33,604 nucleotides of DNA from an uncultured Candidatus Saccharibacteria bacterium. GTDB lineage: Bacteria > Patescibacteriota > Minisyncoccia > Phycocordibacterales > UBA9973. Made by a program: the position numbers and the translations under genes. The notes below the pieces were generated by a model. The model saw only the letters and a program-made list of their open reading frames with translations, was not told the origin of the DNA and did no database searches. This document shows positions 9,733 through 31,689 of the stretch, piece after piece. How positions within the stretch are numbered: position 1 is the stretch's first letter; each line of letters begins with the position of its first letter. The stretch lies in contig CAYIOX010000002.1 of assembly GCA_964365245.1 (NCBI GenBank), positions 1 to 33,604 of the forward strand. Direction: 5' to 3'.

Positions 9733-9738
9733 GCTATA

Positions 9739-9747
9739 ATACTAGCA
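9739..9747 (-). promoter_or_regulatory. Extended -10 TGcTAGTAT, 6 nt upstream of the MBL-gene ATG at 9732
   Basis: Minus strand reads ...TGCTAGTATtatagcATG. Confidence 0.35.
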
Positions 9748-9778
9748 TGACCCTTTTATTATAATAATCGGGGTCATG
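9746..9778. promoter_or_regulatory. Inverted repeat CATGACCC-N17-GGGTCATG in the divergent MBL/sod intergenic region (possible operator or hairpin)
   Basis: 8-bp perfect arms at 9746..9753 and 9771..9778. The AT-rich 17-nt spacer contains TATAAT-like hexamers on both strands. Confidence 0.3.
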
Positions 9779-9795
9779 GTGAGTAAACACGAACT

Positions 9796-10419: not shown

Positions 10420-11893
10420 ACTGTTTTATACTCCTACCAAAAAGTCTATAGATAAAATAGGCATAGATTAGTATGGTTAAACCTAATGGAAAATTTGGGA
10501 AAGTAAAAGCAGCAAAAGGTAAATTTGAGAAAAAACTGACGACCCAGAGTTCATAATGGAGAAATAAATACGAAATAAATCCGAATGGCACACTAAATCC
10601 ATGCCAAATAAGTCCGACGAAGCCGGTCATAAAACCGAACAACATTGTAAACGGAATAAAAGGAAGAATTAACATATTCGCTGGAAGCGCAACCAAAGAC
10701 AAATTGCCCATTTTGTAAAGAATAAAAGGTAAAACAAAAACATAAGCAGAAAAAGTTACGGACATAATATCTCGTAATTTAAAGAAATCTGGCACCCAAA
10801 GGAAATATTTTTCAACTCTGGGGGCTAAAAAGATAACTGCAATAGTCGCAATAAAAGAAAGCTGAAAAGAAACATCATACACAAGCACAAAGGGATTAAA
10901 TAAAATCATAAACACACCAGCCAAAATCAAAGCTCGCGCCACATCATAATTCCTGCCAGTTGCTCGAGCGATGAGCACGAGCACAGCCATTACCCCAGCT
11001 CTTATAGCCGTAGAACTTCCACCAGTCATTAGTATAAAAAATAAAATAGCCAAAATACCCATTCCAATACCGAGATTTTTTGGCAAAAAAACAAATAATT
11101 TCATTATCCACTCTGCCACTATCGTCACATTATATCCAGACAATGCCACTATATGTATGGTGCCTGTATTCACAAAACTCTCTCGCAAAGACTGATCAAA
11201 AGAAGATTTCTCCCCTAAAATAAGCCCACCCATTAAAAGTGACTCAGGGCTTTGAATTGCAAAATTCATCTTTTCTAAAAATTTTTCTTTTACAAAAAAG
11301 AGTGCACTTTTTAAAAAATTACCGTTACCCCTAGAAACAATTTTAATAGTCGGATAACTCATCACATACAAAATCCCGTCTTTACGTAAATAATTTATAT
11401 AATCAAAATCTTTACCTTGATCTGTGATAAAATTCTCCGGCTTTTCTAATTTACCATAAAAATTCACTTCATCACCATATTTAAAATCATCACCCAAATC
11501 TATTGTCACTAAAATTTTTGTTTTCTCCTTCTCTAGGAAAATTCCTATAGCCAATTTCTGATTATTTTCTCCAATACTTGGTTCATCTACAATTTCTCCA
11601 GAAAAAGAAGCTTTCTGTCCGACTTTTGACTCGAAAACACTCGGCGCCGGCAAATCAACTACAATAAATCTAAAGACACCCAAACAAAAAGCTAAAACAA
11701 AAATAGAAAATAATACCCCCTGCCTACCGGCAGGCAGGCACTTGTTTTTAGAAATTAGAGAGAAAAATAAAAATAAAGAAAAAGAAATTACTCCAAACAA
11801 AATAATTAAATAGAAATTTACAGAAACAAGAGAGCGCAAAAGCACCCCAAAAATAAAACCGAAACAAATTGTATAGAAAATCTTATCTCGCAT
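10400..11893 (-). CDS. comEC: ComEC/Rec2 DNA-uptake channel protein, N-terminal OB/DUF4131-like plus competence (TM) domains only, with no MBL domain
   Basis: 497-aa polytopic ORF with a soluble insert (KASFSGEIVDEPSIGENNQKLAIG...). Competence-domain signatures GTIHIVALSGYNVTIV and MTGGSSTAIRAGVM. Its 3' end overlaps the sod 3' end by 20 nt (convergent). Confidence 0.85.
   Translation of the reverse strand: MRDKIFYTICFGFIFGVLLRSLVSVNFYLIILFGVISFSLFLFFSLISKNKCLPAGRQGVLFSIFVLAFCLGVFRFIVVDLPAPSVFESKVGQKASFSGEIVDEPSIGENNQKLAIGIFLEKEKTKILVTIDLGDDFKYGDEVNFYGKLEKPENFITDQGKDFDYINYLRKDGILYVMSYPTIKIVSRGNGNFLKSALFFVKEKFLEKMNFAIQSPESLLMGGLILGEKSSFDQSLRESFVNTGTIHIVALSGYNVTIVAEWIMKLFVFLPKNLGIGMGILAILFFILMTGGSSTAIRAGVMAVLVLIARATGRNYDVARALILAGVFMILFNPFVLVYDVSFQLSFIATIAVIFLAPRVEKYFLWVPDFFKLRDIMSVTFSAYVFVLPFILYKMGNLSLVALPANMLILPFIPFTMLFGFMTGFVGLIWHGFSVPFGFISYLFLHYELWVVSFFSNLPFAAFTFPNFPLGLTILIYAYFIYRLFGRSIKQFIAEPF
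11719..11738. repeat. Near-perfect 20-nt G+C-rich palindrome CCTGCCTACCGGCAGGCAGG inside comEC
   Basis: One mismatched pair out of ten. Encodes CLPAGRQG in a loop between TM helices, in the same CTG-CCT-GCx (LPA) frame as the sod copy. Confidence 0.8.
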
Positions 11894-11910
11894 TTAAAAA
11901 TACTTAAATT

Positions 11911-12435
11911 TTATTTTCCTTGTCCCGTAGTGAGCTCTGCTCTACTACCGGGATTAAGTTCCACAGGTTCACCTTCCGCAAAACTTGTGGCTATGAGGTC
12001 AGCGCGATCATTGTATTTGTCTTCATTGTGTCCTTTTACATAAGTCCATTTAGGTTTCAACTCTTTTACAAGAGCATAAAGTTCTTCCCAAAGTTCACGA
12101 TTTAAGACTGGCTTCTTCCCAGCATTTCGCCAATTATTTTTCTGCCAATTGAAAATCCACTCTGTGATACCCAAAATCACATACTTGGAATCTGAAACAA
12201 TCTCTATGTCAAAGATGCCCTTTGACATATTGGATTTTAAATATTTTAAGGCTTCTATGGGTGCAGTCAGTTCCATTTGATTATTCGTAGCATGGTCTAC
12301 TTTTCCACCTATCTCATGTACACCCTTCGAGTCGCCAGAGTTTTGTGCTAACAAAACGACAGCGCCCCAGCCAGCTCTCCCCGGATTTCCCTTCGCCGCC
12401 CCGTCGGTATAAATTGTAATTTTTTTATCTTGCAT
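11911..12435 (-). CDS. rnhA: Ribonuclease HI
   Basis: 174 aa. TDGAAKGNPGRAGWGAVV, NNQMELTAPIEAL, VSDSKYV, NDRADLIA (DEDD residues). It carries a C-terminal tail of about 25 aa. Confidence 0.92.
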   Translation of the reverse strand: MQDKKITIYTDGAAKGNPGRAGWGAVVLLAQNSGDSKGVHEIGGKVDHATNNQMELTAPIEALKYLKSNMSKGIFDIEIVSDSKYVILGITEWIFNWQKNNWRNAGKKPVLNRELWEELYALVKELKPKWTYVKGHNEDKYNDRADLIATSFAEGEPVELNPGSRAELTTGQGK

Positions 12436-12457: not shown

Positions 12458-14164
12458 TTAAAAAATATCCTCGATCCGCAAACGCAACTCTTCTCTTCCC
12501 CGAAACCTTGATAAATCAAAAGTGGCAAGCAGGTTTACAGCAATACCTTCTGATAATTTTTTCTGAAAAGAATCGCTATTAGAAAAAAAAGACACCGCTT
12601 TGGCTCTATTTAAATTAAAATCAGAAAAAGTAATTTCTAAATGTTCACCAGAACCATTTTTGCCAAATTTTTTTATCTTTTCTATTTTCACACTTTCAAA
12701 AAGAAAAATTGGTTTCGGATTGCCAAAACCAAAAGGTTCAAGCTTCTCTATTTCACGCCAATTTTTCATATTTACTGCATTTAAATCCAGCTTCAAATCA
12801 AACCCCTCCTGACTCCCCTTATCAGGGGAGGTTCCCATTTCTCCTCCTGACAAGGAGGAGCTAGAGGAGGTTGTATTTTCTTGTTTTATTTTACTAAAAG
12901 AATTGGATAAAGCTTCTTCCAAGAAGAATATCTTCTCATTATAAACAGAAAAACCTCCAGCGAGTTCATGTCCGCCAAAATCCATAAAAGATTCCCTCGT
13001 TTCAGTCATAAGTTCTACTATTGAAACCGAACCGTCACTTCGGCAAGAGCCCTTGATGCAGTCATTTTCATCTTTGCCCCAAACAAAAACAGGCTTTTGG
13101 TATTGGTCAGAAATTTTTCCAGCAACAAGCCCCAGAACACCCACTCGCCATTTCGGATTACCCACCACTATCACCTCTCTCATTTCTGTTGTCTCAAACT
13201 TTTTATGGACCTCGCGCATAATGCTTGTAACAATAGTCTTTCGATCATTATTTATTTTTGATAAATGATCCGCAAGCATTCCGGCCTTCACTTCGTCATC
13301 AGTCGCAAGAAGTTCAAAAGCTCGCATCGGATCATCCATGCGGGATGCGGCATTTAGGCGTGGTGTTACCATAAAACCCACATCATCAGGAGAAAGATGT
13401 TTCTGAACAATATTCATCTTGGCGAAAAGCTTTTGTAAACCGGGGCGAGGAGATTTCTTCAACACCTTCATTCCAAAATACGCAATAGCTCTATTTTCTC
13501 CCGTAAGCGGAACCATATCAGAAAGTGTGGCGAGACCCGCCATATCAAGCATCCATTTTTCTGCCCCTTCTCGGGTTTTAAAATGTTCTTTGTATTTTTT
13601 AAGAAAACCCTGCGCAAATTTAAAAACAACACCCGCCCCACACAACATTTTTTCGGAATAATTATCTACTTTGGGATTCAAAATTGCACAAGCGCGAGGT
13701 AAAACTTCTTGAGGTAAGTGATGATCAGTAATTATCACATCAATGCCGTCAATTTTAGCCTGCGCTACTTCAGCCACAGCTGTGATTCCCAGATCAACGG
13801 TTATTAAAAGTTTTATCCCAAAATTAACAAACTTTTCAATAGCTTCTAAATTCAACCCATAACCTTCAGAATTTCTCTGCGGTATGTAAACTTCGTAATT
13901 TTTATATCCCAAAAGTTGAAACAAGTCATTTAGAATCACAGCCCCGGGTATGCCATCGCAGTCATAATCAGCATAAATAACAATTTTCTCTTTATTCTCT
14001 ATAGCCTCATATAGACGGACACAAGCCTTCTCCATATCGCGCATTAAAAAAGGATCATGCAAATCTCGTTTGTAGTCTGGATTTAAAAAAATCTCTGCTT
14101 GTTTTTCGTTAACAATACCCTTTTTCTCTAGGAGGGTTCTCAATAATTCACCATATTGTTGCAT
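12458..14164 (-). CDS. recJ: Single-stranded-DNA-specific 5'-3' exonuclease RecJ
   Basis: DHH-family motifs ADYDCDGIPG, ITVDLG, IITDHH; DHHA1 FGGHELAGGFS. Start placed at ATG 14164 (MQQYGELL...). The ORF-track start at 14251 would run through the HIT gene start. Confidence 0.92.
   Translation of the reverse strand: MQQYGELLRTLLEKKGIVNEKQAEIFLNPDYKRDLHDPFLMRDMEKACVRLYEAIENKEKIVIYADYDCDGIPGAVILNDLFQLLGYKNYEVYIPQRNSEGYGLNLEAIEKFVNFGIKLLITVDLGITAVAEVAQAKIDGIDVIITDHHLPQEVLPRACAILNPKVDNYSEKMLCGAGVVFKFAQGFLKKYKEHFKTREGAEKWMLDMAGLATLSDMVPLTGENRAIAYFGMKVLKKSPRPGLQKLFAKMNIVQKHLSPDDVGFMVTPRLNAASRMDDPMRAFELLATDDEVKAGMLADHLSKINNDRKTIVTSIMREVHKKFETTEMREVIVVGNPKWRVGVLGLVAGKISDQYQKPVFVWGKDENDCIKGSCRSDGSVSIVELMTETRESFMDFGGHELAGGFSVYNEKIFFLEEALSNSFSKIKQENTTSSSSSLSGGEMGTSPDKGSQEGFDLKLDLNAVNMKNWREIEKLEPFGFGNPKPIFLFESVKIEKIKKFGKNGSGEHLEITFSDFNLNRAKAVSFFSNSDSFQKKLSEGIAVNLLATFDLSRFRGREELRLRIEDIF
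12803..12870. repeat. G+C-rich hairpin-forming segment inside recJ encoding a low-complexity linker
   Basis: Hairpins CTCCCC-ttatca-GGGGAG (12813..12830) and CTCCTCC-tgacaa-GGAGGAG (12841..12860). Direct repeat CCTCCTGAC at 12805 and 12843. Encodes SSSSLSGGEMGTSPDKGSQEG. Confidence 0.75.
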
Positions 14165-19339: not shown

Positions 19340-20719
19340 ATGAACTTTCATACTTTTTACGCTTATCAAAAAAAATCAGTTTCGATCTCCCCTCGCGTTC
19401 TTTTATCGACACAAGGCGGATTTACTTTGATTGAAACACTGATCGGTAGCGCCGTTTTTCTGATAGTGGCTTTGTCAGCCTACAGCGCTTTCAATGTATT
19501 GATGGATGTTGCTGTCGCTTCTCGAATCAAAGTGGCGGCTACAGAATTAGCGAATGAAAGGTTTGAAATTATGAGAAATCTGCCTTATGTTGATGTGGGA
19601 ATAGTCGGAGGATTGCCCATCGGCAAAATTATTAGAAACCAAAACATTATCCGCGACGGCTATTCATTTACCGTAGTCACCACAATCAGAAGCGTTGACG
19701 ACACGTTTGATGGAACAATCGGCGGAAGCCCTTCTGACACCTCGCCAGCGGATTATAAATTGGCAGATATGGACATAACATGCTCTAACTGTAAAAATTT
19801 TTCCACTTTGAATTTCACAACCTTGGTGGCGCCACACGCGCTTGAAACCGCCTCGAACAACGGCGCGCTCTATGTGAGAACAATCGATGCCAGCGGTGTT
19901 CCCGTCGCAAACGCGTCAGTGCACATAGTGAACACACAGACAAACCCAGACACCATCATAGATGAAACGACTGACAGCAGTGGATGGATCAAAATAGTGG
20001 ACGCGCCACCTGGCACCGGAGCTTATAACCTCACAGCTACCAAACCTGGCTATTCGCAAGATCAAACATACCCAATAGGTGGTGTGGCGGGACCAAATCC
20101 GATCAAGCCAAACGCAAATGTGGTAACTCAACAAGTAACCCAGTTAAGTTTGGCGATAGACAGATTGAGTTCCTTGGCAATGACAACAGTAGATTCTTCT
20201 TGCGTGGCATTACCCAACATTGGCTTTTCTCTCACGGGAACTAAAACAATCGGTGTCGGCATACTGAAATATCCAACACAAAATTTTACGACAAACTCAG
20301 GCGCCAATTATACGATTCCAAATTTAGAATGGGATACTTATGGAGTTTTGCTCACATCCGCATCTTACGATTTGGCTGGCACCACCTTATTGCCAAGTTT
20401 CGTTGTCAACCCAAATGAAAATAAGACTCTCCAGCTAATAGCCGTCCCTCATGTAAACAGAGCTCTTTTGGTTTCTGTGAAAGATTCTACGAATGCGACA
20501 ATCGATGACGCCACAGTGCGCTTGCAAAGAAGCGGATTTGATCAAACAAAAACAACAAATTCTGGATCATGTTCCAGTCCTGGACAAGTTTTTTGGAACG
20601 GACTTGCAAGTGACACATACACCTTGACTGTTTCAAAAACAGGATACCAAACATACACCAATGGCGCTTTAAACATTTCTGCCGCTTGGCAAAACCAAAC
20701 AATAACCTTAAATCCATAA
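19340..20719 (+). CDS. Giant prepilin-type protein (459 aa) with carboxypeptidase-regulatory-like beta-sandwich domains
   Basis: Class III signal QGG|FTLIETLIGSAVFLIVAL (F+1, E+5). CarboxypepD_reg-like segments ALYVRTIDASGVPVANASVHIVN...GAYNLTATKPGYS and LLVSVKDSTNATIDDATVRL...DTYTLTVSKTGYQ. Confidence 0.8.
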   Translation: MNFHTFYAYQKKSVSISPRVLLSTQGGFTLIETLIGSAVFLIVALSAYSAFNVLMDVAVASRIKVAATELANERFEIMRNLPYVDVGIVGGLPIGKIIRNQNIIRDGYSFTVVTTIRSVDDTFDGTIGGSPSDTSPADYKLADMDITCSNCKNFSTLNFTTLVAPHALETASNNGALYVRTIDASGVPVANASVHIVNTQTNPDTIIDETTDSSGWIKIVDAPPGTGAYNLTATKPGYSQDQTYPIGGVAGPNPIKPNANVVTQQVTQLSLAIDRLSSLAMTTVDSSCVALPNIGFSLTGTKTIGVGILKYPTQNFTTNSGANYTIPNLEWDTYGVLLTSASYDLAGTTLLPSFVVNPNENKTLQLIAVPHVNRALLVSVKDSTNATIDDATVRLQRSGFDQTKTTNSGSCSSPGQVFWNGLASDTYTLTVSKTGYQTYTNGALNISAAWQNQTITLNP

Positions 20720-20720
20720 A

Positions 20721-21329
20721 ATGCGAAATAATTATAAAAACAAAAAAAATGGACTTACTTTGGTTGAAACTCTTTTTGTGGTTGCTATTTTTACGCTTAT
20801 CATGGGAGTGCTTACATTATTTTCCAAAAATATCTGGACCTATAATTCTTTTATAAACACAGAACTAGAAGCTGTCGACACAGGAAGAATGGCACTAAAA
20901 ACAATGACCGCAGAGATTCGCACCGCTTCGTCTGGCAATAATGGATCCTATGCCATCAATCTGGCGAGCGCCACAAGCTTCACTTTTTATTCAGACATAT
21001 ATGATGATGGATTAAAAGAAAAAGTGAGATATTTTTTAAATGGAACAAATCTGCAAAAAGGAGTAATAATACCGACTGGTAGCCCCCTTGGTTATACCGG
21101 AAGCGAAATTGTAACCACTATTGTTTCCAATGTTACAAATGCTTCTATTTTTAGTTATTACGACAGAAATTACGATGGCGCCACAGTGGCCCTCTCTTCT
21201 CCCATCGATGTGTCAGCTGTGAGATTGGTAAAAATAACCGTCACAATTGATAAAAATCAAAATACACCACCTGCGCCAGTAACAGTATCCACGCAAGTTT
21301 CAATAAGAAACATAAAAGATAATCTATGA
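20721..21329 (+). CDS. Prepilin-type N-terminal cleavage/methylation domain protein (pilin/pseudopilin)
   Basis: KKNG|LTLVETLFVVAIFTLIMGV (E+5). 202 aa. ATGA overlap with the next gene. Confidence 0.8.
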   Translation: MRNNYKNKKNGLTLVETLFVVAIFTLIMGVLTLFSKNIWTYNSFINTELEAVDTGRMALKTMTAEIRTASSGNNGSYAINLASATSFTFYSDIYDDGLKEKVRYFLNGTNLQKGVIIPTGSPLGYTGSEIVTTIVSNVTNASIFSYYDRNYDGATVALSSPIDVSAVRLVKITVTIDKNQNTPPAPVTVSTQVSIRNIKDNL

Positions 21330-22798
21330 TTAAGAAGAAAAAAATAATTAAAAAAAGAGGCATGATTATATTGCAAACAATAGTCTTTGCCGCCGTTTCA
21401 ATAATAATCATCAGCGCGCTTGCCAGTTTGACCGCCACATCTTTGAACGCAAGCAGAGCAACCTACAATCGCGAACAGGCATTTCAATCTGCCGAAGCGG
21501 GAATAGATTATTATCGATGGCATCTAGCTCACGTTTCCAACGATTATCAAGATGGCACAGGCGGACCTGGTCCATATGTCCACTCTTTAAAAAACAAAAA
21601 CGATAGCGTGATTGGACAATTTTCTCTCACGATTACCCCTCCATCACCGGGCTCCACTTTGGTTAAAATAAAATCAGTCGGAACTTCCAACCTTGATCCT
21701 TCATTCACAAGAAAAATAATAACCCAAGTTGCTAAACCTTCCATCGCAGAACACGCTTTCGCTGGAAATAATGCGATGCGTTTCGGTCAAGGGACGGAAA
21801 TTTTCGGAAGCATCCACTCAAATGGAGGAATACGTTTTGATGGAGTAGCGCATAATACAGTTACCAGTTCCGCCACCACTTATGATGACGCAGATCATTC
21901 AGGAAATAATGAAATTGGCGTTCATACACATGTGAACGCGCCACCCGGAAGCGGAATCAATTCAACCTTTAGATCAGCTGAATCGAACCCAAGTTCAATA
22001 CCCGTAAGACCAGATGTTTTCGAAGCTGGACGCAAAATAAGCCAACCAACAATCGATTTTTCGGGTTTTACCTCGGACATAGCAGACCTGAAATTATCCG
22101 CGCAAACGAACGGATTTTATCGAGATGGGGCCGGAAGCGGTTTTGTCGGCTATCACATTGTTTTAAAAACAAATGACACTTTTGACTTGTATAAAATAAA
22201 TTCGTGGGCAAGCTTGGGCAACTGTAATGACTCAGATTCTGAAAGCTCTAGCTGGAGCATCAGCGCCCAAACAATCCAGGGTAATTACGCGCTCCCGTCA
22301 AATGGAATAATTTTTATTCAAGACCATCTTGTGATTGACGGACAAGTAGATAGCGCGCGAATCACTATTGCCGCCGCCCTTTTACCAGAACCATCAGACA
22401 CAAGTCAATACAAAAACATATTCATAAACAATGATTTGTCTTATACCAACTACGATGGGACGGATTCCATCGGTCTCGTGGCGCAAGGCGGAGTAATGGT
22501 GGGTATGATTAGTGAAGACAACCTTAAAATAGATGGGGCCTTAATGGCGCAACATAATAAAGTGGGAAGATTTTATTATATGGGAAACAGTAGTTGCGTT
22601 TATAAAAATCGTTCGGTAATTTCACTCTATGGCATGATCGCTTCTTACGCTAGATACGGATTTGCTTATACAGATGGCACGGGCTACACAATCAGAAATA
22701 TAAACTATGACGCAAACTTACTTTACGCTCCGCCTCCAGAGTTTCCTTTAACTTCAGACCAATACCAAATACTCTCTTGGCAAGAAGTGAAAAATTAA
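21326..22798 (+). CDS. Large minor-pilin-like protein lacking Glu5 (PilX/GspK-like role inferred)
   Basis: KKRG|MIILQTIVFAAVSIIIISALA with Q at +5. 490 aa. Last gene of the pilin operon. Confidence 0.6.
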   Translation: MIKKKKIIKKRGMIILQTIVFAAVSIIIISALASLTATSLNASRATYNREQAFQSAEAGIDYYRWHLAHVSNDYQDGTGGPGPYVHSLKNKNDSVIGQFSLTITPPSPGSTLVKIKSVGTSNLDPSFTRKIITQVAKPSIAEHAFAGNNAMRFGQGTEIFGSIHSNGGIRFDGVAHNTVTSSATTYDDADHSGNNEIGVHTHVNAPPGSGINSTFRSAESNPSSIPVRPDVFEAGRKISQPTIDFSGFTSDIADLKLSAQTNGFYRDGAGSGFVGYHIVLKTNDTFDLYKINSWASLGNCNDSDSESSSWSISAQTIQGNYALPSNGIIFIQDHLVIDGQVDSARITIAAALLPEPSDTSQYKNIFINNDLSYTNYDGTDSIGLVAQGGVMVGMISEDNLKIDGALMAQHNKVGRFYYMGNSSCVYKNRSVISLYGMIASYARYGFAYTDGTGYTIRNINYDANLLYAPPPEFPLTSDQYQILSWQEVKN

Positions 22799-23931
22799 TA
22801 CTGATTGGCGCCTTCAATGAGTCGAGGCGGACCGGGCTGAATTATGATGCCTTTATAATTGTTATTGTTAGAATTATCATTTATATCGTAATTATTATTA
22901 ACATCAACATTTGGTAAACCATTGTTATTGTTCAAGTTGTCTGTATTTGTATTTGGATTTCCTAAATCAGTATTGGTGTTAGTATTAGTATTGTTATTAT
23001 TGTTGGCGGAATTGGGATCAGAAGTCGCATTTGGGTTTAAATCGGTAACAGAAGGTGTAGAAGTAGTGTCAACAATGGGAATAATGCCAGGAACAGGAGG
23101 AAGATCGGAGCCCACATCAGAATCTGGGGTGGAAGTTGGCGGTAAGAATGATTGCTCTATTTGATCTTCTATATCCGTCAATTGTTTTTGCAACACTATC
23201 ACCTCATCTTCCGTTTGGTCCACTATGCCTTGTTGAACCACGATATCTTCTGATGTTATTAAATGACCATTAGATTCTGTTGAAGTCCCGGTATCTAAAT
23301 TATTGTTTTTTGAATTATCTATAGCAATTTGAATCGAAGTTAAAACTTCATTTATAGCGTCCTCCGAAGGAAGACTGGCTAAATAAATATTTATTTGAGC
23401 TTGCGGAATCCCTGAATTTTCCGGTGTCAAAATTCCAACCAAATGAGCAAGATCTTTTAGGTAAGTTTTGATAGTCTGCGCGTCTTTTTTAATTTGTTCA
23501 CTCTCTTTTATATCAATTTTTTTAATGGCGAGAACATCTACTTTTTTTTGCCACTCGGCAAGCAATAAATTTATGTTTTTTCTTTCTTTATTGATGAGAA
23601 GAATAGTGGGAAGATTCTTGACTATCAATTCCGGATTTAATCCATTCGGATCGATAAACATAAAATCAGTCTGACTAACTATATTAGAACCTTTTTTCAT
23701 TTGATCTTGAACATCGACAGTCAAAGCAGAAGAATTTCTAAAATTGTCTGTCATAATCTTCAGTGTGTCTCTTTCTTTGCTTAATTTCTTTTCAAGAATA
23801 GACAAATCGCTCTGTAATTTATTTTTTTGAACGGTTAAATCGTTTCTAATATTGTTACGTGTCAAAAGATAAGCCCCGAGAATGATGACGAGCGCAAAAA
23901 ACACACCCCCGACAACAAGCGATTTAGTCAT
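22795..23931 (-). CDS. Membrane-anchored coiled-coil protein with an Asn/Thr-rich low-complexity C-terminus; function unknown
   Basis: TM helix LVVGGVFFALVIILGAYLL, heptad-like KLQSDLSILEKKLSKERDTLK, tail NNNNNTNTNTNTDLGNPNTNTDNLNNNNG. Start placed at ATG 23931; the ORF-track 23961 is a TTG. It sits downstream of pilB-pilC on the same strand. Confidence 0.7.
   Translation of the reverse strand: MTKSLVVGGVFFALVIILGAYLLTRNNIRNDLTVQKNKLQSDLSILEKKLSKERDTLKIMTDNFRNSSALTVDVQDQMKKGSNIVSQTDFMFIDPNGLNPELIVKNLPTILLINKERKNINLLLAEWQKKVDVLAIKKIDIKESEQIKKDAQTIKTYLKDLAHLVGILTPENSGIPQAQINIYLASLPSEDAINEVLTSIQIAIDNSKNNNLDTGTSTESNGHLITSEDIVVQQGIVDQTEDEVIVLQKQLTDIEDQIEQSFLPPTSTPDSDVGSDLPPVPGIIPIVDTTSTPSVTDLNPNATSDPNSANNNNNTNTNTNTDLGNPNTNTDNLNNNNGLPNVDVNNNYDINDNSNNNNYKGIIIQPGPPRLIEGANQY
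22855..23015. repeat. Imperfect AAT/ACT-type microsatellite-like tract (Asn/Thr codons), boundaries approximate
   Basis: Forward strand reads gtattggtgttagtattagtattgttattattgttg and flanking attatt/gttatt runs. Confidence 0.6.
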
Positions 23932-23986
23932 AATATTATTATACAACAACCTGACGAACAAAGTCTAACTTTGCGCGGAAAAATAA

Positions 23987-25204
23987 TTATTTTATACTGC
24001 CCAAAATTGAGTAAAGCGGAGAGATCATGGAAATAGCAAAAAATCCAACCCCCGCGCCAATGACGACCATCAACAATGGTTCAATGATAGTGGAAAGATT
24101 TTTAGTTTTGTTCTCAATCTCTCCTTCGTAAAACAAAGCGACTTCCAGCAACATATCCGACAACTTGCCGGTTTCTTCTCCGACTTGGATCATCTCTGAC
24201 ATCATCACGGGGTAAAGTTTACTATTGGCTTCAAAAACTGAAGAAAAGGAAGCCCCTTTTTCCACAGCAGTCTTGACCTCGTCTAAAACTTTTTGGTAGT
24301 AAACATTCTGCACCACATCTCCAGTGATTTCTACCGCGCGAGTTATGGAAACTCCAGCCAAAAGAAGCGAGGACATGGTGCGAGCGGTGCGAGCGGTGCT
24401 CAATTCTTTCGCCAAATTTCCAACAACTGGAATTCGCAAAACGATATAATCGATGTATTTAGTCATAAATTTAGCGCGAAAAAATGAGAACAGGCCAAAG
24501 GCGATAACGATTATAATCACAAAAGTCAATATCAAGTTATTAGAAAAGAAGTTGCCAAAAAAAATGAGAACACGAGTGGACGTCGGTAGAACAACGCCAA
24601 GCTCTTTGAAAGTGCTGGCAAGCGTCGGCACAACAAAAGCAAACATCAAAACACCAATGACAACCATGGCGGATAAAATGACTCCCGGGTAAATAAGCGC
24701 TCCTTTTATTTTTTTGGTCAAATTGTGCGATTTCTCCAAATTAATCCCGATATCGACAAGAGCGTTCGCCAAATTTCCCGCCTCTTCCCCAGCGCGCGTC
24801 ATTGACACAAAAAGTTTTGAAAAAACGTCAGGAGATTTGGCGAGCCCGGAAGAAAATGTCTCGCCAGAATTTATATCTCCGGAAAGAGAAGTCAAAACGT
24901 TGCTCAGTTTGACATTTTTTGTTTGTTTTTTTAAAACAGACAGCGCTCTATAGAGCGAAAGTCCCGCTTTTATCATTCCACTTAGATTTTTGGTCAAAAT
25001 AATTTGTTCACTGACGCTAACTTTTGAAAAAATACCGCTGAATGACGACACCTTGTCCATAAAATTATCGCTTTTCTCTTTGATCAATAGTGGTGTGTCT
25101 CCGCGACTCCGCAGTTCGCGAGCGAGCGCCAGACGATCAGTGGCATACAAAATGCCTTCCATAATTTCACCATCTTTTGATTTTGCCTTGTATGAAAAAA
25201 GCAT
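23987..25204 (-). CDS. pilC: Type IV pilus/T2SS platform protein (GspF/PilC family)
   Basis: 405 aa, two T2SS-F repeats, three TM segments. A perfect TTGACA (25232..25237, minus strand) lies in the 34-nt gap after pilB. Confidence 0.93.
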   Translation of the reverse strand: MLFSYKAKSKDGEIMEGILYATDRLALARELRSRGDTPLLIKEKSDNFMDKVSSFSGIFSKVSVSEQIILTKNLSGMIKAGLSLYRALSVLKKQTKNVKLSNVLTSLSGDINSGETFSSGLAKSPDVFSKLFVSMTRAGEEAGNLANALVDIGINLEKSHNLTKKIKGALIYPGVILSAMVVIGVLMFAFVVPTLASTFKELGVVLPTSTRVLIFFGNFFSNNLILTFVIIIVIAFGLFSFFRAKFMTKYIDYIVLRIPVVGNLAKELSTARTARTMSSLLLAGVSITRAVEITGDVVQNVYYQKVLDEVKTAVEKGASFSSVFEANSKLYPVMMSEMIQVGEETGKLSDMLLEVALFYEGEIENKTKNLSTIIEPLLMVVIGAGVGFFAISMISPLYSILGSIK

Positions 25205-25238: not shown

Positions 25239-27017
25239 CTATTCTGAAACGACACGGAATACTTCTTCTAGGGTGGTAACGCCTAAAACCGCTTGATACA
25301 CTCCGTCTTCCAACATGGTCATCATGCCTTCTTTTTTCGCTTCTATTTCTATATCGTCCTGAGATTTTCCGGCAATAATCATTTCCTTGATGGCGGGCGT
25401 TACTTTTAGCACTTCGTGCATACCCATACGATTGGAATAACCGTCCTCAAATTCACTGCTCTTGACCGCTTTGTAAAAAGGAATTTTATCCCAAGTGTCT
25501 TTTGGACCCACAATGTTCTCAGTTTTCAAAAAACCCAACACTCTGTCCAAATCGACAACCTTAGCTAAATTTTTTATTTCCGCAGGCGATAAAAAATATT
25601 TTTCCTTGTTTGGAGTAAGTCTGCGCACCAGTCTTTGCGCGATAATAGTCTTGACTGTAGCTGTTATCAAAAATGGTTCAACGCCCATATCTATCAATCT
25701 GGGTATCGCGCCAGAAGCGCTATTGGTGTGAATAGTAGATAGAACCAAATGACCAGTGAGAGAAGCATTGATCGCCAATCCCGCAGTCTCGCCATCACGA
25801 ATCTCTCCCACCATCACTATATCTGGATCTTGACGCAAGAGGGAACGAAGTCCGTTGGCAAAAGACAAACCTATTTCCGGTTTTACTTGTGTTTGATTGA
25901 CTCTCGGCATTTGATACTCGATAGGATCTTCCACAGTGGAAATATTTACCTCGGGCTTGTTTAAGATATCAAGCATTGTGTATAGGGTGGTGGTTTTTCC
26001 CGAACCAGTAGGTCCAGTGGCCAGTACCATTCCCGTTTTTTGCGAAAGAGACGCATGTATTCGCTCTAATCCTTCCCCATGAAAACCAAGCGTCTCCAAA
26101 GAAAATCCATGCGTATTTTCTTTTAAAATTCTCATCACAGTCTTCTCTCCAAAAAAAGTCGGCAAGGTGGAAACACGAAAAGAAATTTTTTCTCCATCTT
26201 GTTCTTTTTTAAATCTACCGTCTTGAGGCAATCTTTTTTCATCCAGCTTTAAATTGGAAAGCACCTTAATGCGCGCGGTGATCCCCGCGCCGGCAGTCTT
26301 GTCCAAGACCATAGCGTCATGCAATATGCCATCTATTCTGTAACGCACCGTAAGCTCGCGTTCTCCTGGTTCAATATGAATATCGGACGCATTTTGCAAA
26401 ATCGCGTGAAAAATCAGAGAATCAACAATTTTCACAACCGGCAAATCTTCGGCTAGATCTTTTAATTCTGTTTCGGACTTTTCATTTAATTGTTCTTCGC
26501 CTTCCTTTTCCTTGTTTTTTTCGTCTGCGGAAATTTCAAGCTCTTTGGATTCTTTTTGGATAATATTTTGAAATTCAGCCTTCAAACTTTTCCTATATTG
26601 GACGAGCACAGACTTGATCGAAGCCGTATCAGTCAATCGAGGTAAAATTTTAAGTCCAGAACGCTTCTTGATAAAATCAATCACCGGCAAATCATCGACG
26701 TCGAGCATGGCCACTTCCAAACCATGTTCGCTTTTAGTGTAAGCGACGATGTTGTCGTTGCGCGCAATCGGCTCAGGAATCAGAGAAAGCACGGAGAAAT
26801 CTATCTTCCTGTCGATCAAGCTGACAAACGGTATTCCGAGCACATACGCCTCCGTCCGTTTCAAGTCGGTCTCAGATATTTTCCCTTCGGAAAGCAAAAT
26901 GTTCCCGATTTTTTGTTTTTTATTTTCGGATATCTTTAACGCAGATTCAAAATCTTTCTTGGAAACAATCCCCAACTCTAAAAGAAACTTTTTAAACTGC
27001 TCTTCGTCTATTTGCAT
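25239..27017 (-). CDS. pilB: Type IV pilus assembly ATPase (GspE/PilB family) with an N-terminal T2SSE_N/MshEN-like domain
   Basis: Walker A GPTGSGKTTT, Walker B DPDIVMVGEIRD, His box LVLSTIHTN. There is no Cys anywhere in the protein, so the usual tetracysteine motif is absent. Confidence 0.95.
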   Translation of the reverse strand: MQIDEEQFKKFLLELGIVSKKDFESALKISENKKQKIGNILLSEGKISETDLKRTEAYVLGIPFVSLIDRKIDFSVLSLIPEPIARNDNIVAYTKSEHGLEVAMLDVDDLPVIDFIKKRSGLKILPRLTDTASIKSVLVQYRKSLKAEFQNIIQKESKELEISADEKNKEKEGEEQLNEKSETELKDLAEDLPVVKIVDSLIFHAILQNASDIHIEPGERELTVRYRIDGILHDAMVLDKTAGAGITARIKVLSNLKLDEKRLPQDGRFKKEQDGEKISFRVSTLPTFFGEKTVMRILKENTHGFSLETLGFHGEGLERIHASLSQKTGMVLATGPTGSGKTTTLYTMLDILNKPEVNISTVEDPIEYQMPRVNQTQVKPEIGLSFANGLRSLLRQDPDIVMVGEIRDGETAGLAINASLTGHLVLSTIHTNSASGAIPRLIDMGVEPFLITATVKTIIAQRLVRRLTPNKEKYFLSPAEIKNLAKVVDLDRVLGFLKTENIVGPKDTWDKIPFYKAVKSSEFEDGYSNRMGMHEVLKVTPAIKEMIIAGKSQDDIEIEAKKEGMMTMLEDGVYQAVLGVTTLEEVFRVVSE

Positions 27018-27029: not shown

Positions 27030-27174
27030 CCTTACAGTTAATTTTTTTAAAAATCTTTGTGGTGTGGACAGAAAGGCAAATATGGTATATGCTTCTGCTT
27101 GATAAAAGTTCCAAACTGTGGTCTAGCTAGTCTGGGCCACAAAACAATAACGTCCTTTGAAAGCTGAAAACATT

Positions 27175-27987
27175 ATGAAGAAAACGCAGATGCTCTTGAT
27201 AAGTCTCGTCCTGGTATTGTGCCAGGCTCGAGCAGAAATAACCGCAACCTCGTTCATGACGCTCGCCCCGAACCTCAGCATGTCTCCCGACGCGGGAGCT
27301 TTCTTTAACAACTTACTCATGGCAATCCAGACCGGCGCTTCGCAAGCGGGGGTTCCTGGAACGCCGTCAGAGGTCTCATTTTTACAAGGCCCAGAGGCTT
27401 CCATTAGTCTCGACAGAATGATATCCACGGACTATCATTCATGGGGACCAGAAGTGAATCCCCCGGCGCCTTACAGCTCTCAATATGGGGGTTCGCTACT
27501 CCTCGGAGTATGCATTGATGGCAATGGGGAAAGATTTTTACCCCAAAGCATCAGACTGACCCAAGTCTCGACAGACCCTTACGACCTGTTCTCCTACACC
27601 GTGACAGGAACTATCTCGTATTGGAGTACATATGTTCGAGGAATGACGTATGACATCAAGAATGGAACGGAAAACTGGCTAACAAGTGGCTCAGTAACTG
27701 AAGTTCCTAAAGCTATGATACTCTACGCCATATCGGTAGTTCCAGGAGAGACAACCGGAACTCCGGAACAAATCCAAAATCGGACATTGTCTGATTGGGA
27801 ACAAGGGTTTTACATCACACCGGAATGGAAAGTGGGAGGCACCACCGAGAGCGGAAATCCGTTTCAAATAATTCTGCCGGCGGACAACATTCAGATCGTC
27901 CCCGAGCCCTCAATCATCACTCTGTTCCTAGCGGGACTGGGCATCATCGTCTTCGTAAAATTCGCGAGACGAAACGAGTCAGGATAA
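27175..27987 (+). CDS. Secreted protein with a C-terminal PEP-CTERM sorting signal, on a G+C-rich single-gene island
   Basis: Signal peptide MKKTQMLLISLVLVLCQARA|E. C-terminus IVPEPSIITLFLAGLGIIVFVKFARRNESG (PEP motif, TM helix, basic cluster). ATG 27175 is preferred over the ORF-track TTG at 27157. Codon usage (ctc, gcg, ccg, gac) is unlike the neighbours. Confidence 0.8.
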   Translation: MKKTQMLLISLVLVLCQARAEITATSFMTLAPNLSMSPDAGAFFNNLLMAIQTGASQAGVPGTPSEVSFLQGPEASISLDRMISTDYHSWGPEVNPPAPYSSQYGGSLLLGVCIDGNGERFLPQSIRLTQVSTDPYDLFSYTVTGTISYWSTYVRGMTYDIKNGTENWLTSGSVTEVPKAMILYAISVVPGETTGTPEQIQNRTLSDWEQGFYITPEWKVGGTTESGNPFQIILPADNIQIVPEPSIITLFLAGLGIIVFVKFARRNESG

Positions 27988-28016
27988 CAAATCCAACTTT
28001 CAACATCTTCAAAAGA

Positions 28017-28047
28017 GCCGGACATAGCAACTCCGGCCTTTTTTTAT
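28017..28047 (+). terminator. Rho-independent terminator after the PEP-CTERM gene
   Basis: GCCGGA-catagcaac-TCCGGC followed by cTTTTTTTaTTTTT. Confidence 0.7.
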
Positions 28048-28068: not shown

Positions 28069-29433
28069 TTAGTCTTCTATAAATCCCGGTCCTTTCTGTT
28101 CTGAGCACGTTTTATCATCATCAGTCTCTACATCAGGATTAGAGCCAAGACAAGTCCATGTAACTCTAGAAGGTAAGTTTCGGTGATCTGCGCTTCCATT
28201 TAAAGATTGACAATTATAGTGAGTTGGTGCACAAATCCCAATACCAACACCACCAGAATAAGCATAAGTAAACGTAACAGTTTTCTTGGGATTAGTGGAA
28301 CTCAGTGTAACCGAATATTGACTTATATTGCCATTGATAGTATTACATGGTGTTGTGCCACCAGTATTACAGATTTTTAATTTGGTAATAGTATAACCAG
28401 AATCGGACAGAGTAGGATCAACTTTAACTTCATAAGTGCCAAAATCTTTAGGATATGTTCCTCCAGTTTCGCAAGAACCTGCCGTTCCCACAACATTTCC
28501 ACCTATATAACAAGATCCAGAAGGAAGCGAACCCACACTACCCATCTCTCTTACTATAGTGATAGAAGAAGCGCTATTTCCTGGTGGAGTGACACATGTA
28601 GACCAATCACTGTTGCCATTTGCGCAAATATGAGAGCATCCATCGTTATTGTCTGGACCGTTTAGACCATATTGAGGAAGACTATAATTTGTATCATTAA
28701 CTATCCTGCAACCCCACTTAGGAGCAGTGCAAGTGGCAACCGTTGCGCCCGATCCGCAAGACCAATTCCATGCTTGAGATCCGATAGTCGTTGTATCTGG
28801 TAGAGCAGAAAAAGTGCCTTGCGCGCAGGCAGATGTTCCAATTGGTTCTATTTGTTGTGGAGTAGAGCCACTGCCAGGACCGCAAGAAGCAGATGTGGAT
28901 CCAATAATAATGCCACTGAAATCAACCGAACCAACCACATCGGAACCCCATGCATATCCTGTTAAGTTTGTGCCTGACTGTGTCACTCCATAATTATTAC
29001 CCGCAAGAGAAATCCAGCCATCCCAGCCACCCAGTTCTGAATTTGATTTCAAAGCCCCAGAACAATTAGATTGAAAAACGGAACAAGCCCTAACCCAACC
29101 GACGAGAGAGTTTCCAGACATTCTAGCATCTGTTCCAGTAGTGCCACCTCCACTTGGCCAACCGGAAAGTCCTCCGAATTGTATCCAGCCAATATTTGAG
29201 GACCAAGCGTAACCAGGACGAGAACATAAATCATCGCCACAAAATCTTCCGCCAGGAGTTTTATGAACACCATAATTAACTGCCGAATGGTCATTTGTGG
29301 AATTAAAACTAATCCAGCCGATATTGGAAGATAAAGCCCAACCAGACATATTGTGTTCAGTTCCGGCAAAAGCCACAAAAGGCGACAAGAAGAAAACAAA
29401 CGCAAAGACAATTTTTAAAAAATAAATCTTCAT
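28069..29433 (-). CDS. Secreted Cys-rich protein with N-terminal Trp-rich repeats; uncharacterised family
   Basis: Signal peptide MKIYFLKIVFAFVFFLSPFVAFA|G (start at ATG 29433). Five repeats of the type GWALSSNIGWISF / GYAWSSNIGWIQF / GWDGWISLAG / GYAWGSDVVGSVDF. About 20 Cys, and the motif WxWxCxGS occurs twice (AWNWSCGSG, VTWTCLGSN). Confidence 0.8.
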   Translation of the reverse strand: MKIYFLKIVFAFVFFLSPFVAFAGTEHNMSGWALSSNIGWISFNSTNDHSAVNYGVHKTPGGRFCGDDLCSRPGYAWSSNIGWIQFGGLSGWPSGGGTTGTDARMSGNSLVGWVRACSVFQSNCSGALKSNSELGGWDGWISLAGNNYGVTQSGTNLTGYAWGSDVVGSVDFSGIIIGSTSASCGPGSGSTPQQIEPIGTSACAQGTFSALPDTTTIGSQAWNWSCGSGATVATCTAPKWGCRIVNDTNYSLPQYGLNGPDNNDGCSHICANGNSDWSTCVTPPGNSASSITIVREMGSVGSLPSGSCYIGGNVVGTAGSCETGGTYPKDFGTYEVKVDPTLSDSGYTITKLKICNTGGTTPCNTINGNISQYSVTLSSTNPKKTVTFTYAYSGGVGIGICAPTHYNCQSLNGSADHRNLPSRVTWTCLGSNPDVETDDDKTCSEQKGPGFIED

Positions 29434-29450
29434 AATTTTAATTATGATCT

Positions 29451-29957
29451 CTAGGGATTGCAACAATATATAGCGCCCACATCAGCATCACTGCTACCAG
29501 CGTCCATTCGACTTATTTTTAATCCCGCCACATATTTACCTGATGGACACATAACAGTCTCGCCAGCGGTTTCAAATGTTCCAACAGAAGCAGTCCATTC
29601 ACAACTATTTTGTGTCAACGTAGTGCTTCCTCCTCCACTCACCGTCCCCCACTTTACCTTTCCATTGTTCAAATCAGAAGAATCAGCCATCAGAACTTGA
29701 CCTGCGGTTGGCGGTATTAAACCACTTGGAATAAATTTTAAATCTCCAACTATGCCAAGCCCTCCCACAGTCAAAGGACCTCCCTTTGTTTGGGGTAAAC
29801 TACCCACATTTATAGGAGCATCACAACCAGGCTGGCCAGAGGGACAATTGGGCGGACTATCGAGTGGAGCAGTGAAAGCTGACACATATCCCGCCCCCAC
29901 AACAACAATCAAACCCAACGTTATTATCTTTATATTTTGTATTATTTTTGTTTTCAT
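29451..29957 (-). CDS. Small secreted Cys-containing protein; uncharacterised
   Basis: Signal peptide ...VVVGAGYVSA|FTAPLDSPPNCPSGQPGCDAPINVGSLPQTKGGPLTVGG. Six Cys, ending IYCCNP. Only 8 nt downstream of the preceding ORF. Confidence 0.7.
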   Translation of the reverse strand: MKTKIIQNIKIITLGLIVVVGAGYVSAFTAPLDSPPNCPSGQPGCDAPINVGSLPQTKGGPLTVGGLGIVGDLKFIPSGLIPPTAGQVLMADSSDLNNGKVKWGTVSGGGSTTLTQNSCEWTASVGTFETAGETVMCPSGKYVAGLKISRMDAGSSDADVGAIYCCNP

Positions 29958-29965
29958 ATTTTTAA

Positions 29966-30178
29966 TTATTTTTTATTTAATGATTTCGACATGGCGTCTA
30001 ATTTTGATCTAAATTGAGGTGTTTGTTCCTGAACAGTGAGACTTTGAGACATTTCAGTTAGTTTTTGCGCGGGGTTGGGGGGAGATGGAGACTTCGGTTG
30101 AAAAGAATAATAAAAAATAAGCACTCCTAAAATAAGGACAACGAAAACAATCAACGCGACTTTTATATTTTTATTCAT
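29966..30178 (-). CDS. Small single-pass membrane protein (70 aa), first gene of the secreted-protein operon
   Basis: TM helix VALIVFVVLILGVLIFYY followed by a Pro/Ser/Gln-rich tail. Support is position and hydrophobicity only. Confidence 0.45.
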   Translation of the reverse strand: MNKNIKVALIVFVVLILGVLIFYYSFQPKSPSPPNPAQKLTEMSQSLTVQEQTPQFRSKLDAMSKSLNKK

Positions 30179-30324
30179 ATTAGACTAGGTTAAGTATAAA
30201 ACAAAAAGAGTTGCAAAAGTAATAGAGAGTGTGGATAACTAATTTTGTCAAAAATAACATAAGTTTTCTCGCATTCAAATAGTTTGCATTAAAATAAAAC
30301 TTATGATATTCTCACAGAGTAAGA

Positions 30325-30501: not shown

Positions 30502-31689
30502 ATGTTAGACCTAAAAACATTCAAATCAGCGTTAGAACAACTGGAAGAAGAAAGAAAAATTCCAAAAGAAAAAATATTGGAAGCAATAGAACAAGCAATG
30601 GCCGCCGCCTACAAAAAAGACTACGGGAAAAAAGGACAAATTATCCGAGCCAAACTTGATATTGAAACAGGAAAGACCGATTTCTTTCAAGTAAAAATAG
30701 TTGTGGATGAAACTATCGCCATTTTGGATGAGAGTAAAAAAAATGAAGGAGAGTATTCCATCAAAGATGCCTCGGATGAGAGGGTGCATTTCAACGCGGA
30801 ACATCATATCCTTTTAGAAGATGCCAAGAAAATAAAGAAAGGGGTGGAATTAAATGATGAAATCATTTTTCCATTGGAATCAAAAGACGACTATGGACGT
30901 ATCGCCGCGCAGACAGCCAAACAAGTCATAATTCAGAAAATCCGCGAAGCAGAACGCACATCCATCATCGATGAATATGGAACAAAAGAGGGCGAGATAA
31001 TCGGAGGCATAGTGCAAAAAGTGGAGAGAGGAAATGTCTATGTCGATTTCAATCGCGCCACCGGCATATTGCCGACAGAGGAACAAATTCCGGGAGAATT
31101 TTTCCAGAGAGGCCAGCGTATTCGAGCTTATCTATACAGCGTAGAAGATACGCCCAGAGGCATCAACTTGCGTCTTTCCCGCACCCACCCAAAATTCATA
31201 GAGAAACTTTTTGCCATGGAAGCGCCAGAAATCCAAAATGGAATAGTGGAAATAAAATCGGTGGCCAGAGAAGCCGGTGCCCGTTCCAAAATGGCGGTCT
31301 TTTCAAATGACGAACACATCGACGCTGTCGGCTCATGCGTCGGACAAAAAGGCACGCGAGTAAACACCATTACACAAGAATTAGGTGGCGAGAAAATTGA
31401 CATTATACCTTGGTCCAGCGATGCTAAAGTTTTTGTCTCTAATTCTATTTCTCCAGCCAAGGTCATCTCCATTGAAATAAATACGGAGGAACACAAGGCC
31501 ACAGTGGAAGTCGCTGACGATCAGCTCTCACTCGCTATCGGCAAAGGTGGACAAAATGTGCGTCTAGCGGCTAAACTTACCGGCTGGAGAATAGATATCA
31601 AAGGTGATGGCGAAATAGTTGAAGAGGCTAAATCCAGCGAAGCTGGATCGCCCGACGCTTCTACTGAAGCGTTTAGGGAAGAGAAATAA
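30502..31689 (+). CDS. nusA: Transcription termination/antitermination factor NusA
   Basis: 395 aa. N-terminal domain, S1 (GEIIGGIVQKVERGNVYVDF), KH1 CVGQKGTRVN and KH2 AIGKGGQNVRLAAKLTGWRIDI. Confidence 0.95.
   Translation: MLDLKTFKSALEQLEEERKIPKEKILEAIEQAMAAAYKKDYGKKGQIIRAKLDIETGKTDFFQVKIVVDETIAILDESKKNEGEYSIKDASDERVHFNAEHHILLEDAKKIKKGVELNDEIIFPLESKDDYGRIAAQTAKQVIIQKIREAERTSIIDEYGTKEGEIIGGIVQKVERGNVYVDFNRATGILPTEEQIPGEFFQRGQRIRAYLYSVEDTPRGINLRLSRTHPKFIEKLFAMEAPEIQNGIVEIKSVAREAGARSKMAVFSNDEHIDAVGSCVGQKGTRVNTITQELGGEKIDIIPWSSDAKVFVSNSISPAKVISIEINTEEHKATVEVADDQLSLAIGKGGQNVRLAAKLTGWRIDIKGDGEIVEEAKSSEAGSPDASTEAFREEK

Follow-up and report, generated by a model that had tools for sequence, protein, structure and literature searches.

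The MAT fibres of Bdellovibrio bacteriovorus (Bd2133 and Bd3182; structures 8OND and 8OJN) combine a signal peptide with an N-terminal domain that is invariant and presumed to lie at the predator surface, with trimeric β-helix stalks, and with tips that may or may not include a Peptidase_S74 (S74) domain (PMC10769870). Variable secreted proteins with a candidate role in host contact also include the pilus adhesins PilY1/PilC and the modular pilins of Patescibacteria (e.g. of Saccharibacteria, PMC11623550). Other routes to surface display are C-terminal sorting signals (LPXTG/sortase, PEP-CTERM/exosortase, GlyGly-CTERM/rhombosortase), which need a transmembrane (TM) helix and a basic cluster after the motif, and wall-binding modules (CW_binding_1, GW, SLH) built from Trp/Tyr/Gly-rich repeated β-hairpins. 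Host recognition and attachment are a central open question in Patescibacteria and, to our knowledge, almost no surface determinants besides type IV pili are known. Here, we analyzed three adjacent genes, encoding a small membrane protein and two secreted proteins termed MID and LARGE, in a complete 33.6-kb contig (the window) from the 557-kb, 75% complete genome of an ultra-small groundwater bacterium. With somewhat better than even confidence, and judging from sequence evidence, we propose that this trio is a module for display or attachment at the cell surface, self-contained and typical of the class Paceibacteria (Patescibacteria/Candidate Phyla Radiation, CPR).

Results

The three genes are co-directional on the minus strand and nearly abutting, with intergenic gaps of 8 and 17 nucleotides (nt), as an earlier note on this DNA had described (Table 1). 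The arrangement is conserved as a co-directional unit across many genera. Among 301 genomes of the class, MID was detected in 95, LARGE in 132, and both in 84, an odds ratio of 25 that is descriptive since related genomes are not independent. MID and LARGE matches lay within 5 kb of each other in at least 46 genomes and within 1 kb in at least 30 (among the matches listed), always on the same strand (46/46). Homologues of the small protein directly precede MID in three of the loci compared (L003, L005, and L007; BLASTP E 1e-11 to 3e-20). Locus L007/L008 (Parcubacteria GW2011_GWC1_36_9) has the order small–MID–LARGE and adjoins a restriction-modification system. In L003, which lies between nusA/H+-PPase and pilB/pilC, the same order is interrupted by a toxin–antitoxin-like gene pair between MID and LARGE, and L005 comprises small–MID only. 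Twenty further loci from different genera showed the recurrent order small TM–MID–LARGE, doubled in L009, L016, and L028 and with extra MID copies in some. Both MID and LARGE are single copy in the genome of the window. Across the homologues, the membrane-proximal N-terminal part of each secreted protein is conserved and the distal part variable.

MID carries a Sec-type signal peptide (residues 1–27, cleavage after VSA and before F), a conserved base (residues 28–110), and a 58-amino-acid (aa) C-terminal tip with four Cys. It had been described as a secreted protein with six Cys, the C-terminus IYCCNP, and a conserved-looking segment, all of which is correct; the Cys are residues 38, 45, 119, 137, 165, and 166, and the segment, PINVGSLPQTKGGPLTVGG, is the conserved core of the MID family, with P48 and Q56 invariant and N50, K58, G60, and L62 conserved at ≥90%. 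Nineteen close homologues have in common the start MKTKIIQNIK..., a hydrophobic stretch to VSA, and the pattern WT.P...PP..N.DAPINVG...Q.K.G.L, while their C-termini are unrelated. Profile searches enlarged the family to 201 proteins. Among 98 aligned members, 15 end in a C-terminal Peptidase_S74, the intramolecular chaperone domain of trimeric tail fibres, and YadA_head, Collagen, Gp53-like_C, Collar, and Gly_rich_2 occur in single members each. Searched against PDB, the family profile matched the MAT fibre Bd2133 (8OND, E 5.7e-8) and 8OJN (E 0.006); the match to Bd2133 spans the GNVGIGT..P..KL.V.G β-helix units and the G.V....sG.a.W element that follows them, and the capping-loop motif (GNVGIGT..P..KL) was found in many family members. 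In the window protein, only the G-Q-V-L-x-x-D...G-K-V-K-W element (residues 86–104) aligns to the corresponding element of Bd2133. MID of the window is a minimal family member with the base, one such unit, and no S74. The statement in the earlier note that no named family could be recognized thus holds for the three window proteins when searched directly, with no meaningful match in Pfam (E ≤1 for LARGE), NCBIfam, PHROGs, or PDB by phmmer, but not for the MID family with its MAT-fibre and S74 matches. The MID family resembles the MAT fibres in layout (signal peptide, conserved base, and exchangeable tip with or without S74), and both are mosaic, multi-copy, and found in bacteria living on other bacteria.

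LARGE is divided into a Sec-type signal peptide, a Trp-hairpin domain (W-domain), a variable Cys-rich middle, and a short C-terminal module (Table 1). Its reported five Trp-rich repeats are a fair description because the domain holds three canonical copies (GWALSSNIGWISF at residue 31, GYAWSSNIGWIQF at 74, and GYAWGSDVVGSVDF at 159) and two degenerate ones (at 112 and 136); no repeats at the DNA level underlie them. Two further details of the earlier description needed adjustment: the approximately 20 Cys placed after the repeats are exactly 20 (next to 14 Trp), four of them within the repeat domain, and the twice-repeated WxWxCxGS motif is approximate only (WNWSCGS at 222 and VTWTCLGS at 424). 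A word-indexed search with LARGE returned more than 1,400 homologues, nearly all aligned over the first 38–45% of the query only and named merely 'hypothetical protein' (Parcubacteria, Paceibacterota, Nomurabacteria). Using residues 24–185, phmmer retrieved 2,921 clusters (50% identity) at E ≤1e-3. With the cut-off tightened to E ≤1e-10 there were 1,310, a recurrence that argues against the Trp repeats being a product of chance. Outside the class, the W-domain was detected in 12 of ~375 sampled genomes of the phylum. It normally follows the signal peptide directly and is internal in ~10 of the best 150 matches; in ten such proteins fn3, BNR, Gly_rich_2, CARDB, or PKD domains stand ahead of it, and frequent fusion of the W-domain to pilins was not borne out. 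The middle region is not conserved among homologues and consists mostly of unassigned sequence, with occasional CARDB, fn3, PKD, or TSP1 domains.

AlphaFold2 (AF2), run on a 100-sequence alignment, predicted residues 28–180 of LARGE as an all-β domain with a predicted local distance difference test (pLDDT) score >90 across most of its span. The remainder was poorly predicted, the middle mostly at pLDDT <60. Foldseek found no analogue of the LARGE model in PDB (best E 1.3, probability 0.02) or BFVD (best E 0.09, TM-score about 0.1); the lack of a known fold is therefore relative to solved (PDB) and viral (BFVD) structures, with Foldseek noise at E ≥0.09 and probability ≤0.16. The 100-sequence family profile had no match among PDB sequences, and literature searches returned no described family. 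Another contig of the same genome encodes a second, divergent W-repeat protein of 695 aa, in which a Trp hairpin occurs once or twice (model positions 18–99, E 7e-14).

The C-terminus of LARGE is conserved as well. A tail of the form P-x-[FYIVLW]-x-E-x is the exact C-terminus in 83/100 aligned LARGE homologues (F in 61, Y in 17) and in 145 of 227 W-domain proteins, many of the others being truncated. None of 121 MID-family proteins carries it. In a set of 27 loci with 765 open reading frames (ORFs) of 80 aa or more, the tail occurred 18 times: in 14 LARGE proteins, one spurious case, and three secreted proteins without a W-domain, all three from the same genomic slot in genomes of the same genus as the window. 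In the genome of the window, LARGE alone combines the tail with a signal peptide; the tail also occurs in one ORF that looks cytoplasmic, where chance would give 0.67. Like the known sorting signals, the tail is short, C-terminal, and common to otherwise unrelated secreted proteins, including different proteins of one genomic slot. It does not qualify as a signal of the sortase or exosortase type, however, because no residues follow the motif: LARGE terminates in ...KGPGFIED-COOH without a subsequent TM helix or basic cluster, and, unlike in the sortase, exosortase, and rhombosortase systems, no processing enzyme was identified for a tail placed at the extreme end.

The first gene encodes a 70-aa single-pass membrane protein, as previously noted, with one hydrophobic helix at residues 7–25 and neither Cys nor Trp. 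An N-in orientation is predicted because Lys residues precede the helix, which would place a 45-residue tail outside the cell; this tail contains a short motif twice (MSQSLT and MSKSLN). In most of 24 loci, small TM proteins with two to four short tail repeats occupy the equivalent operon position. Their sequences diverge rapidly, yet the form of an N-terminal TM helix followed by a tail motif in two to four copies is kept. Examples of such motifs are ..LTAP.. (twice) in L011, ..KY[ST]AP.. (three times) in L025, ..L[TS]xP.. (three times) in L014, L021, and L026, and P.PT..PPL (four times) in L009 and L012. Searches of the small protein against Pfam, NCBIfam, and PHROGs gave weak, TM-driven noise only.

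Cys counts are even in both secreted proteins, with most potential partners 5–20 residues apart, the spacing expected of putative local disulfides. Such a heavy disulfide content had been considered unexpected for this cell, but it is no anomaly, since relatives encode the genes for oxidative folding. A DsbA-like protein is present in all five complete relatives with a LARGE homologue (four of which also have MID), and VKOR in three of the five. No Thioredoxin_4/DsbA-like protein, VKOR, or DsbB was found in the 75% complete genome of the window itself. A DsbA-like gene adjoins or lies near the module in 7/24 loci: in L009, L014, L017, and L018 a membrane-anchored version with a CPFC active site directly follows LARGE, and in L012, L013, and L025 one lies within a few kb. 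VKOR stands upstream of the module in L014 and L018. Oxidative folding is therefore to be expected in the class, and it appears genomically coupled to the module, which suggests that the flanking VKOR and DsbA-like genes are its dedicated oxidative-folding partner.

The surroundings of the trio between pilB/pilC and nusA are as the earlier note had placed them, with the correction that a convergent gene for a secreted PEP-CTERM protein intervenes before pilB. It looks like an insertion that separated the trio from the pilB operon, because relatives have LARGE abutting pilB at exactly this point. A hairpin between the convergent LARGE and PEP-CTERM genes is a likely operon terminator; the consensus terminator scan missed it because of its 9-nt loop and short T run, and the promoter and terminator sites returned by that scan were no more numerous than in shuffled sequence. 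The start regions of the three genes have a common A/T-rich context (29428–29448, 29952–29972, and 30161–30181; minus strand, ..AATTAAAAAT ATG AAA..), no Shine-Dalgarno-like run was evident in them, and the encoded proteins all begin with M-K or M-N-K. An alternative TTG start at 29466 would extend LARGE to 465 aa but is unlikely because homologues begin at the ATG-equivalent MKI.FLKI. Two ORFs of the pilus locus (388 and 490 aa) had no Pfam match at E ≤0.001.

Other loci contain additional genes. In L003, a 53-aa ORF matching the N-terminus of LARGE stands between MID and the inserted 75- and 89-aa genes, with an intact LARGE downstream; the layout suggests an insertion accompanied by duplication of the 5' end of LARGE. 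In some modules, a family of 136–186-aa proteins with an N-terminal TM helix and a β-rich domain lies between MID and LARGE; it could be a fourth component and is absent from the window operon. Secreted proteins of ~230–276 aa flanking LARGE (the window PEP-CTERM protein and those of L003, L007, and L031) were also considered as a fourth conserved component and rejected, as no similarity among them was found.

Table 1. Positions of the trio, its protein regions, neighboring genes, and related features in other loci. Positions without a prefix refer to the window; L prefixes denote other loci and G prefixes genomes (G000, the genome of the window).
Feature	Position	Strand	Description
Gene 1 (small)	29966–30178	minus	70-aa bitopic membrane protein
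Gene 2 (MID)	29451–29957	minus	168-aa secreted protein
Gene 3 (LARGE)	28069–29433	minus	454-aa secreted protein counted from ATG; 20 Cys
LARGE signal peptide	29365–29433	minus	MKIYFLKIVFAFVFFLSPFVAFA; Sec-type, predicted cleavage after AFA and before G; N-terminus conserved in homologues
LARGE W-domain, residues 28–180	28894–29352	minus	Three canonical and two degenerate G-[WY]-A-W-S-x-N-I-G-W-I-x-F hairpins
LARGE middle, residues 181–415	28189–28893	minus	Variable, Cys-rich; 14 Cys in short-range pairs
LARGE C-terminal module, residues 416–454	28072–28188	minus	…VTWTCLGS…CSEQKGPGFIED; last six residues P-G-F-I-E-D at 28072–28089
Hairpin, then CTCTTTTG	28012–28038	minus	Between convergent LARGE and PEP-CTERM genes; RNAfold ΔG −11.8 kcal/mol
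PEP-CTERM gene	27157–27987	plus	Secreted, 276 aa; Pfam PEP-CTERM 22.0 bits vs cut-off 20.7
pilB	25239–27017
pilC	23987–25204
Pilus-locus ORF	22795–23961	minus	388 aa
Pilus-locus ORF	21326–22798	plus	490 aa
Pilins	19340–22798
nusA	30502–31689
H+-PPase	from 31716
Second W-repeat protein	G000:C23:5630–5950		695-aa ORF on another contig of the same genome
VKOR/DsbA-like (CPFC) genes flanking the module	L014:4983–5426, 9685–10410
VKOR/DsbA-like (CPFC) gene flanking the module	L009:13262–13945
VKOR/DsbA-like (CPFC) gene flanking the module	L017:6680–7378
VKOR/DsbA-like (CPFC) genes flanking the module	L018:3279–3722, 11515–11988
Partial LARGE ORF	L003:6801–6962	plus	53 aa; E 3.6e-26
Inserted gene pair	L003:7038–7541		75- and 89-aa genes, toxin–antitoxin-like
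136–186-aa family	L013:9094–9591, 10370–10861
136–186-aa family	L018:9525–10085
136–186-aa family	L021:10415–10969, 12604–13113
136–186-aa family	L027:6541–6951
nusA–pilB slot	L029 (G214:C1:54139–57008)		Slot in a same-genus genome
nusA–pilB slot	L030 (G148:C2:99856–103793)		Slot in a same-genus genome

Discussion

The signal peptides, the conserved unit, and the pattern of conserved bases and variable tips fit the suggestion of the earlier note that the trio is a lineage-specific surface or attachment module. In the arrangement that we envisage, the bitopic small protein would serve as membrane tether or assembly platform, exposing repeated linear motifs on its extracellular tail. MID, exported by Sec, would probably form a short trimeric fibre of a MAT-related family, with its base near the membrane and an exchangeable tip, here the 58-aa, 4-Cys knob. 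LARGE, likewise Sec-secreted, would dock through its conserved W-domain and carry a variable, disulfide-rich middle and the conserved P-x-F-x-E-x tail. The variable outer parts would face the environment, which for an epibiotic or host-dependent cell is most plausibly the cell surface of its host or partner. We infer the tether role of gene 1, the trimerization of MID, the docking by the W-domain, and ligand binding by the variable ends to a host or partner surface from these features.

Several observations weigh against this reading. The window MID alone has no match to MAT fibres (PDB phmmer, E ≤10), S74, or any family. It also has no clear capping loop V-G-G/N-π-x-x-P-x-x-x-L, the motif being represented only by a degenerate VGGLGIVGDLKF without Pro. 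Its AF2 monomer model is of low confidence for most of its length (helix 2–26; extended segment 27–86 at pLDDT 62–71; small β unit 87–105 at pLDDT ~85) and yielded only noise in a Foldseek search against PDB; the modelled extended segment is compatible with a trimer but demonstrates nothing. MID of the window also differs from the MAT fibres in being much shorter (168 vs ~1,000 aa) and lacking S74, a clear capping loop, and a direct match to MAT proteins. Its base (~80 aa) is likened to the MAT N-domain (~130 aa) by layout, not by sequence homology, and it is encoded by a monoderm-type CPR cell. Furthermore, MID is always paired with small TM and W-domain proteins, neither of which is part of the MAT description (PMC10769870). 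Distant homology among the small proteins derives from jackhmmer with a tiny database, where TM and low-complexity bias are possible, although position and composition agree. Lastly, two complete genomes of the same genus have neither MID nor LARGE, and in a third the Trp-hairpin matches are no more than weak. The module is therefore dispensable, and its patchy presence within a genus is more in keeping with an accessory recognition device of fast turnover than with a core part of the envelope.

The main rival is a pilus-dependent device. MID and LARGE would then serve the type IV pilus as accessory or tip proteins, either displayed on the pilus or relying on it for both export and assembly, with co-expression from the head of the pilB–pilC operon. 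Gene positions in some genomes favor such a role. The window trio lies 1 kb from pilB, separated only by the apparently inserted PEP-CTERM gene; in a genome of the same family (G273), a 546-aa LARGE, together with three MID-like genes and a small-like TM gene, immediately precedes pilB in the same orientation; the trio is located just upstream of pilB in L003 and L022; and pilC and pilins lie within ~4 kb in L026 and L028. In the same-genus genomes G214 and G148, which have no MID and no full W-domain (only weak Trp-hairpin matches in G148), the nusA–pilB slot is filled by unrelated secreted proteins of 451, 474, 410, and 839 aa, those of G214 co-directional with pilB–pilC–pilins. The 451-, 474-, and 839-aa proteins end in a ...W.W.C.G..C.E.KKP.[FY].EN module, as does LARGE in its C-terminal module. 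In the lineage of the window, the secreted proteins at this slot vary, and the slot is a hot spot of surface-protein replacement. Against a pilus-dependent device, no more than 4/63 genomes with both positions listed have the module within 5 kb of their best pilB orthologue, the distance being 84–320 kb in near-complete single-contig genomes, and a prepilin-like ORF occurs within 5 kb of the module in only 2/24 loci. pilB is present in 293/301 genomes, LARGE in 132. The prepilin leader (Gly, then F/M-T-L-I/L-E and a hydrophobic helix), which the window pilins at 19340–21329 do carry, was found in none of the three window proteins, nor was the prepilin motif found in the first 80 residues of any of the 227 W-domain proteins; the signal peptides of MID and LARGE are of the ordinary Sec type. 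Compared with PilY1/PilC and the modular pilins, the trio is likewise a set of variable secreted candidates for host contact, at the head of the pilB–pilC operon in the window's lineage, but it has neither a prepilin motif nor a PilY1-type domain, and few genomes (a minority) have it next to pil genes. The position beside the pilus locus, which the earlier note pointed out, is a trait of this lineage and not of the module at large: a general location inside pilus operons is rejected for the class and retained for the lineage of the window. Because of the variable slot in that lineage, we rank dependence on the pilus first among the alternatives, while considering it fairly unlikely.

An envelope-building function, which we regard as improbable, would have the Trp-hairpin domain bind the cell wall or a secondary polymer, comparable to choline-binding, GW, or SLH modules, and make the trio part of the CPR envelope or S-layer without a role in cell recognition. 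Repeated aromatic β-hairpins straight after a signal peptide are known from monoderm wall-binding modules, in secreted proteins with variable domains as here, and the very large family size and many protein contexts would suit this function. Yet Pfam searches at E ≤1 did not return CW_binding_1, SLH, GW, WxL, or LysM, Foldseek gave no match to solved wall-binding repeats in PDB, and the hairpins (13 residues, with linkers of 20–40 residues) form one compact ~150-aa domain, unlike wall-binding repeats. The absence of the module from complete close relatives is unlike a core envelope component, as the strongly variable distal parts are unlike structural lattice proteins. A phage origin, with the trio as receptor-binding proteins of a prophage remnant or as anti-phage decoys, could explain the tail-fibre-type domains (S74, Collar, and Gp53-like_C) in the MID family. 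We judge it highly improbable, given that the trio had no PHROG matches except weak, TM-only ones and no structural match in BFVD, that MID and LARGE have signal peptides, that the flanking genes are housekeeping (nusA, H+-PPase, and pilB/C) with zero phage genes in the window, and that the position is stable across genera.

Within a display or attachment module, the W-domain, the P-x-F/Y-x-E-x tail, and the small-protein motifs may together constitute an undescribed non-covalent system for surface anchoring or polymerization, a tentative proposal that we hold to be unlikely as it stands. The W-domain would act as a clamp on short peptide tails, belonging either to the tether or, in a head-to-tail series, to the neighboring subunit. 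Such a system would be an alternative to sortase or exosortase anchoring and would allow displayed domains to be swapped freely at the hot spot before the pilus motor genes.

A surface display or attachment module of this kind would mean that a family of MAT-like fibres also exists in another bacterial group that depends on other bacteria, unrelated to the first. The W-domain adds a very large family (~2,900 clusters at 50% identity), unnamed in the searched libraries, with a confidently predicted fold without solved analogue, and the conserved C-terminal tail marks proteins of the variable slot upstream of pilB. The pattern of conserved base and variable tip may provide a handle for predicting the host range of these bacteria from metagenomes.

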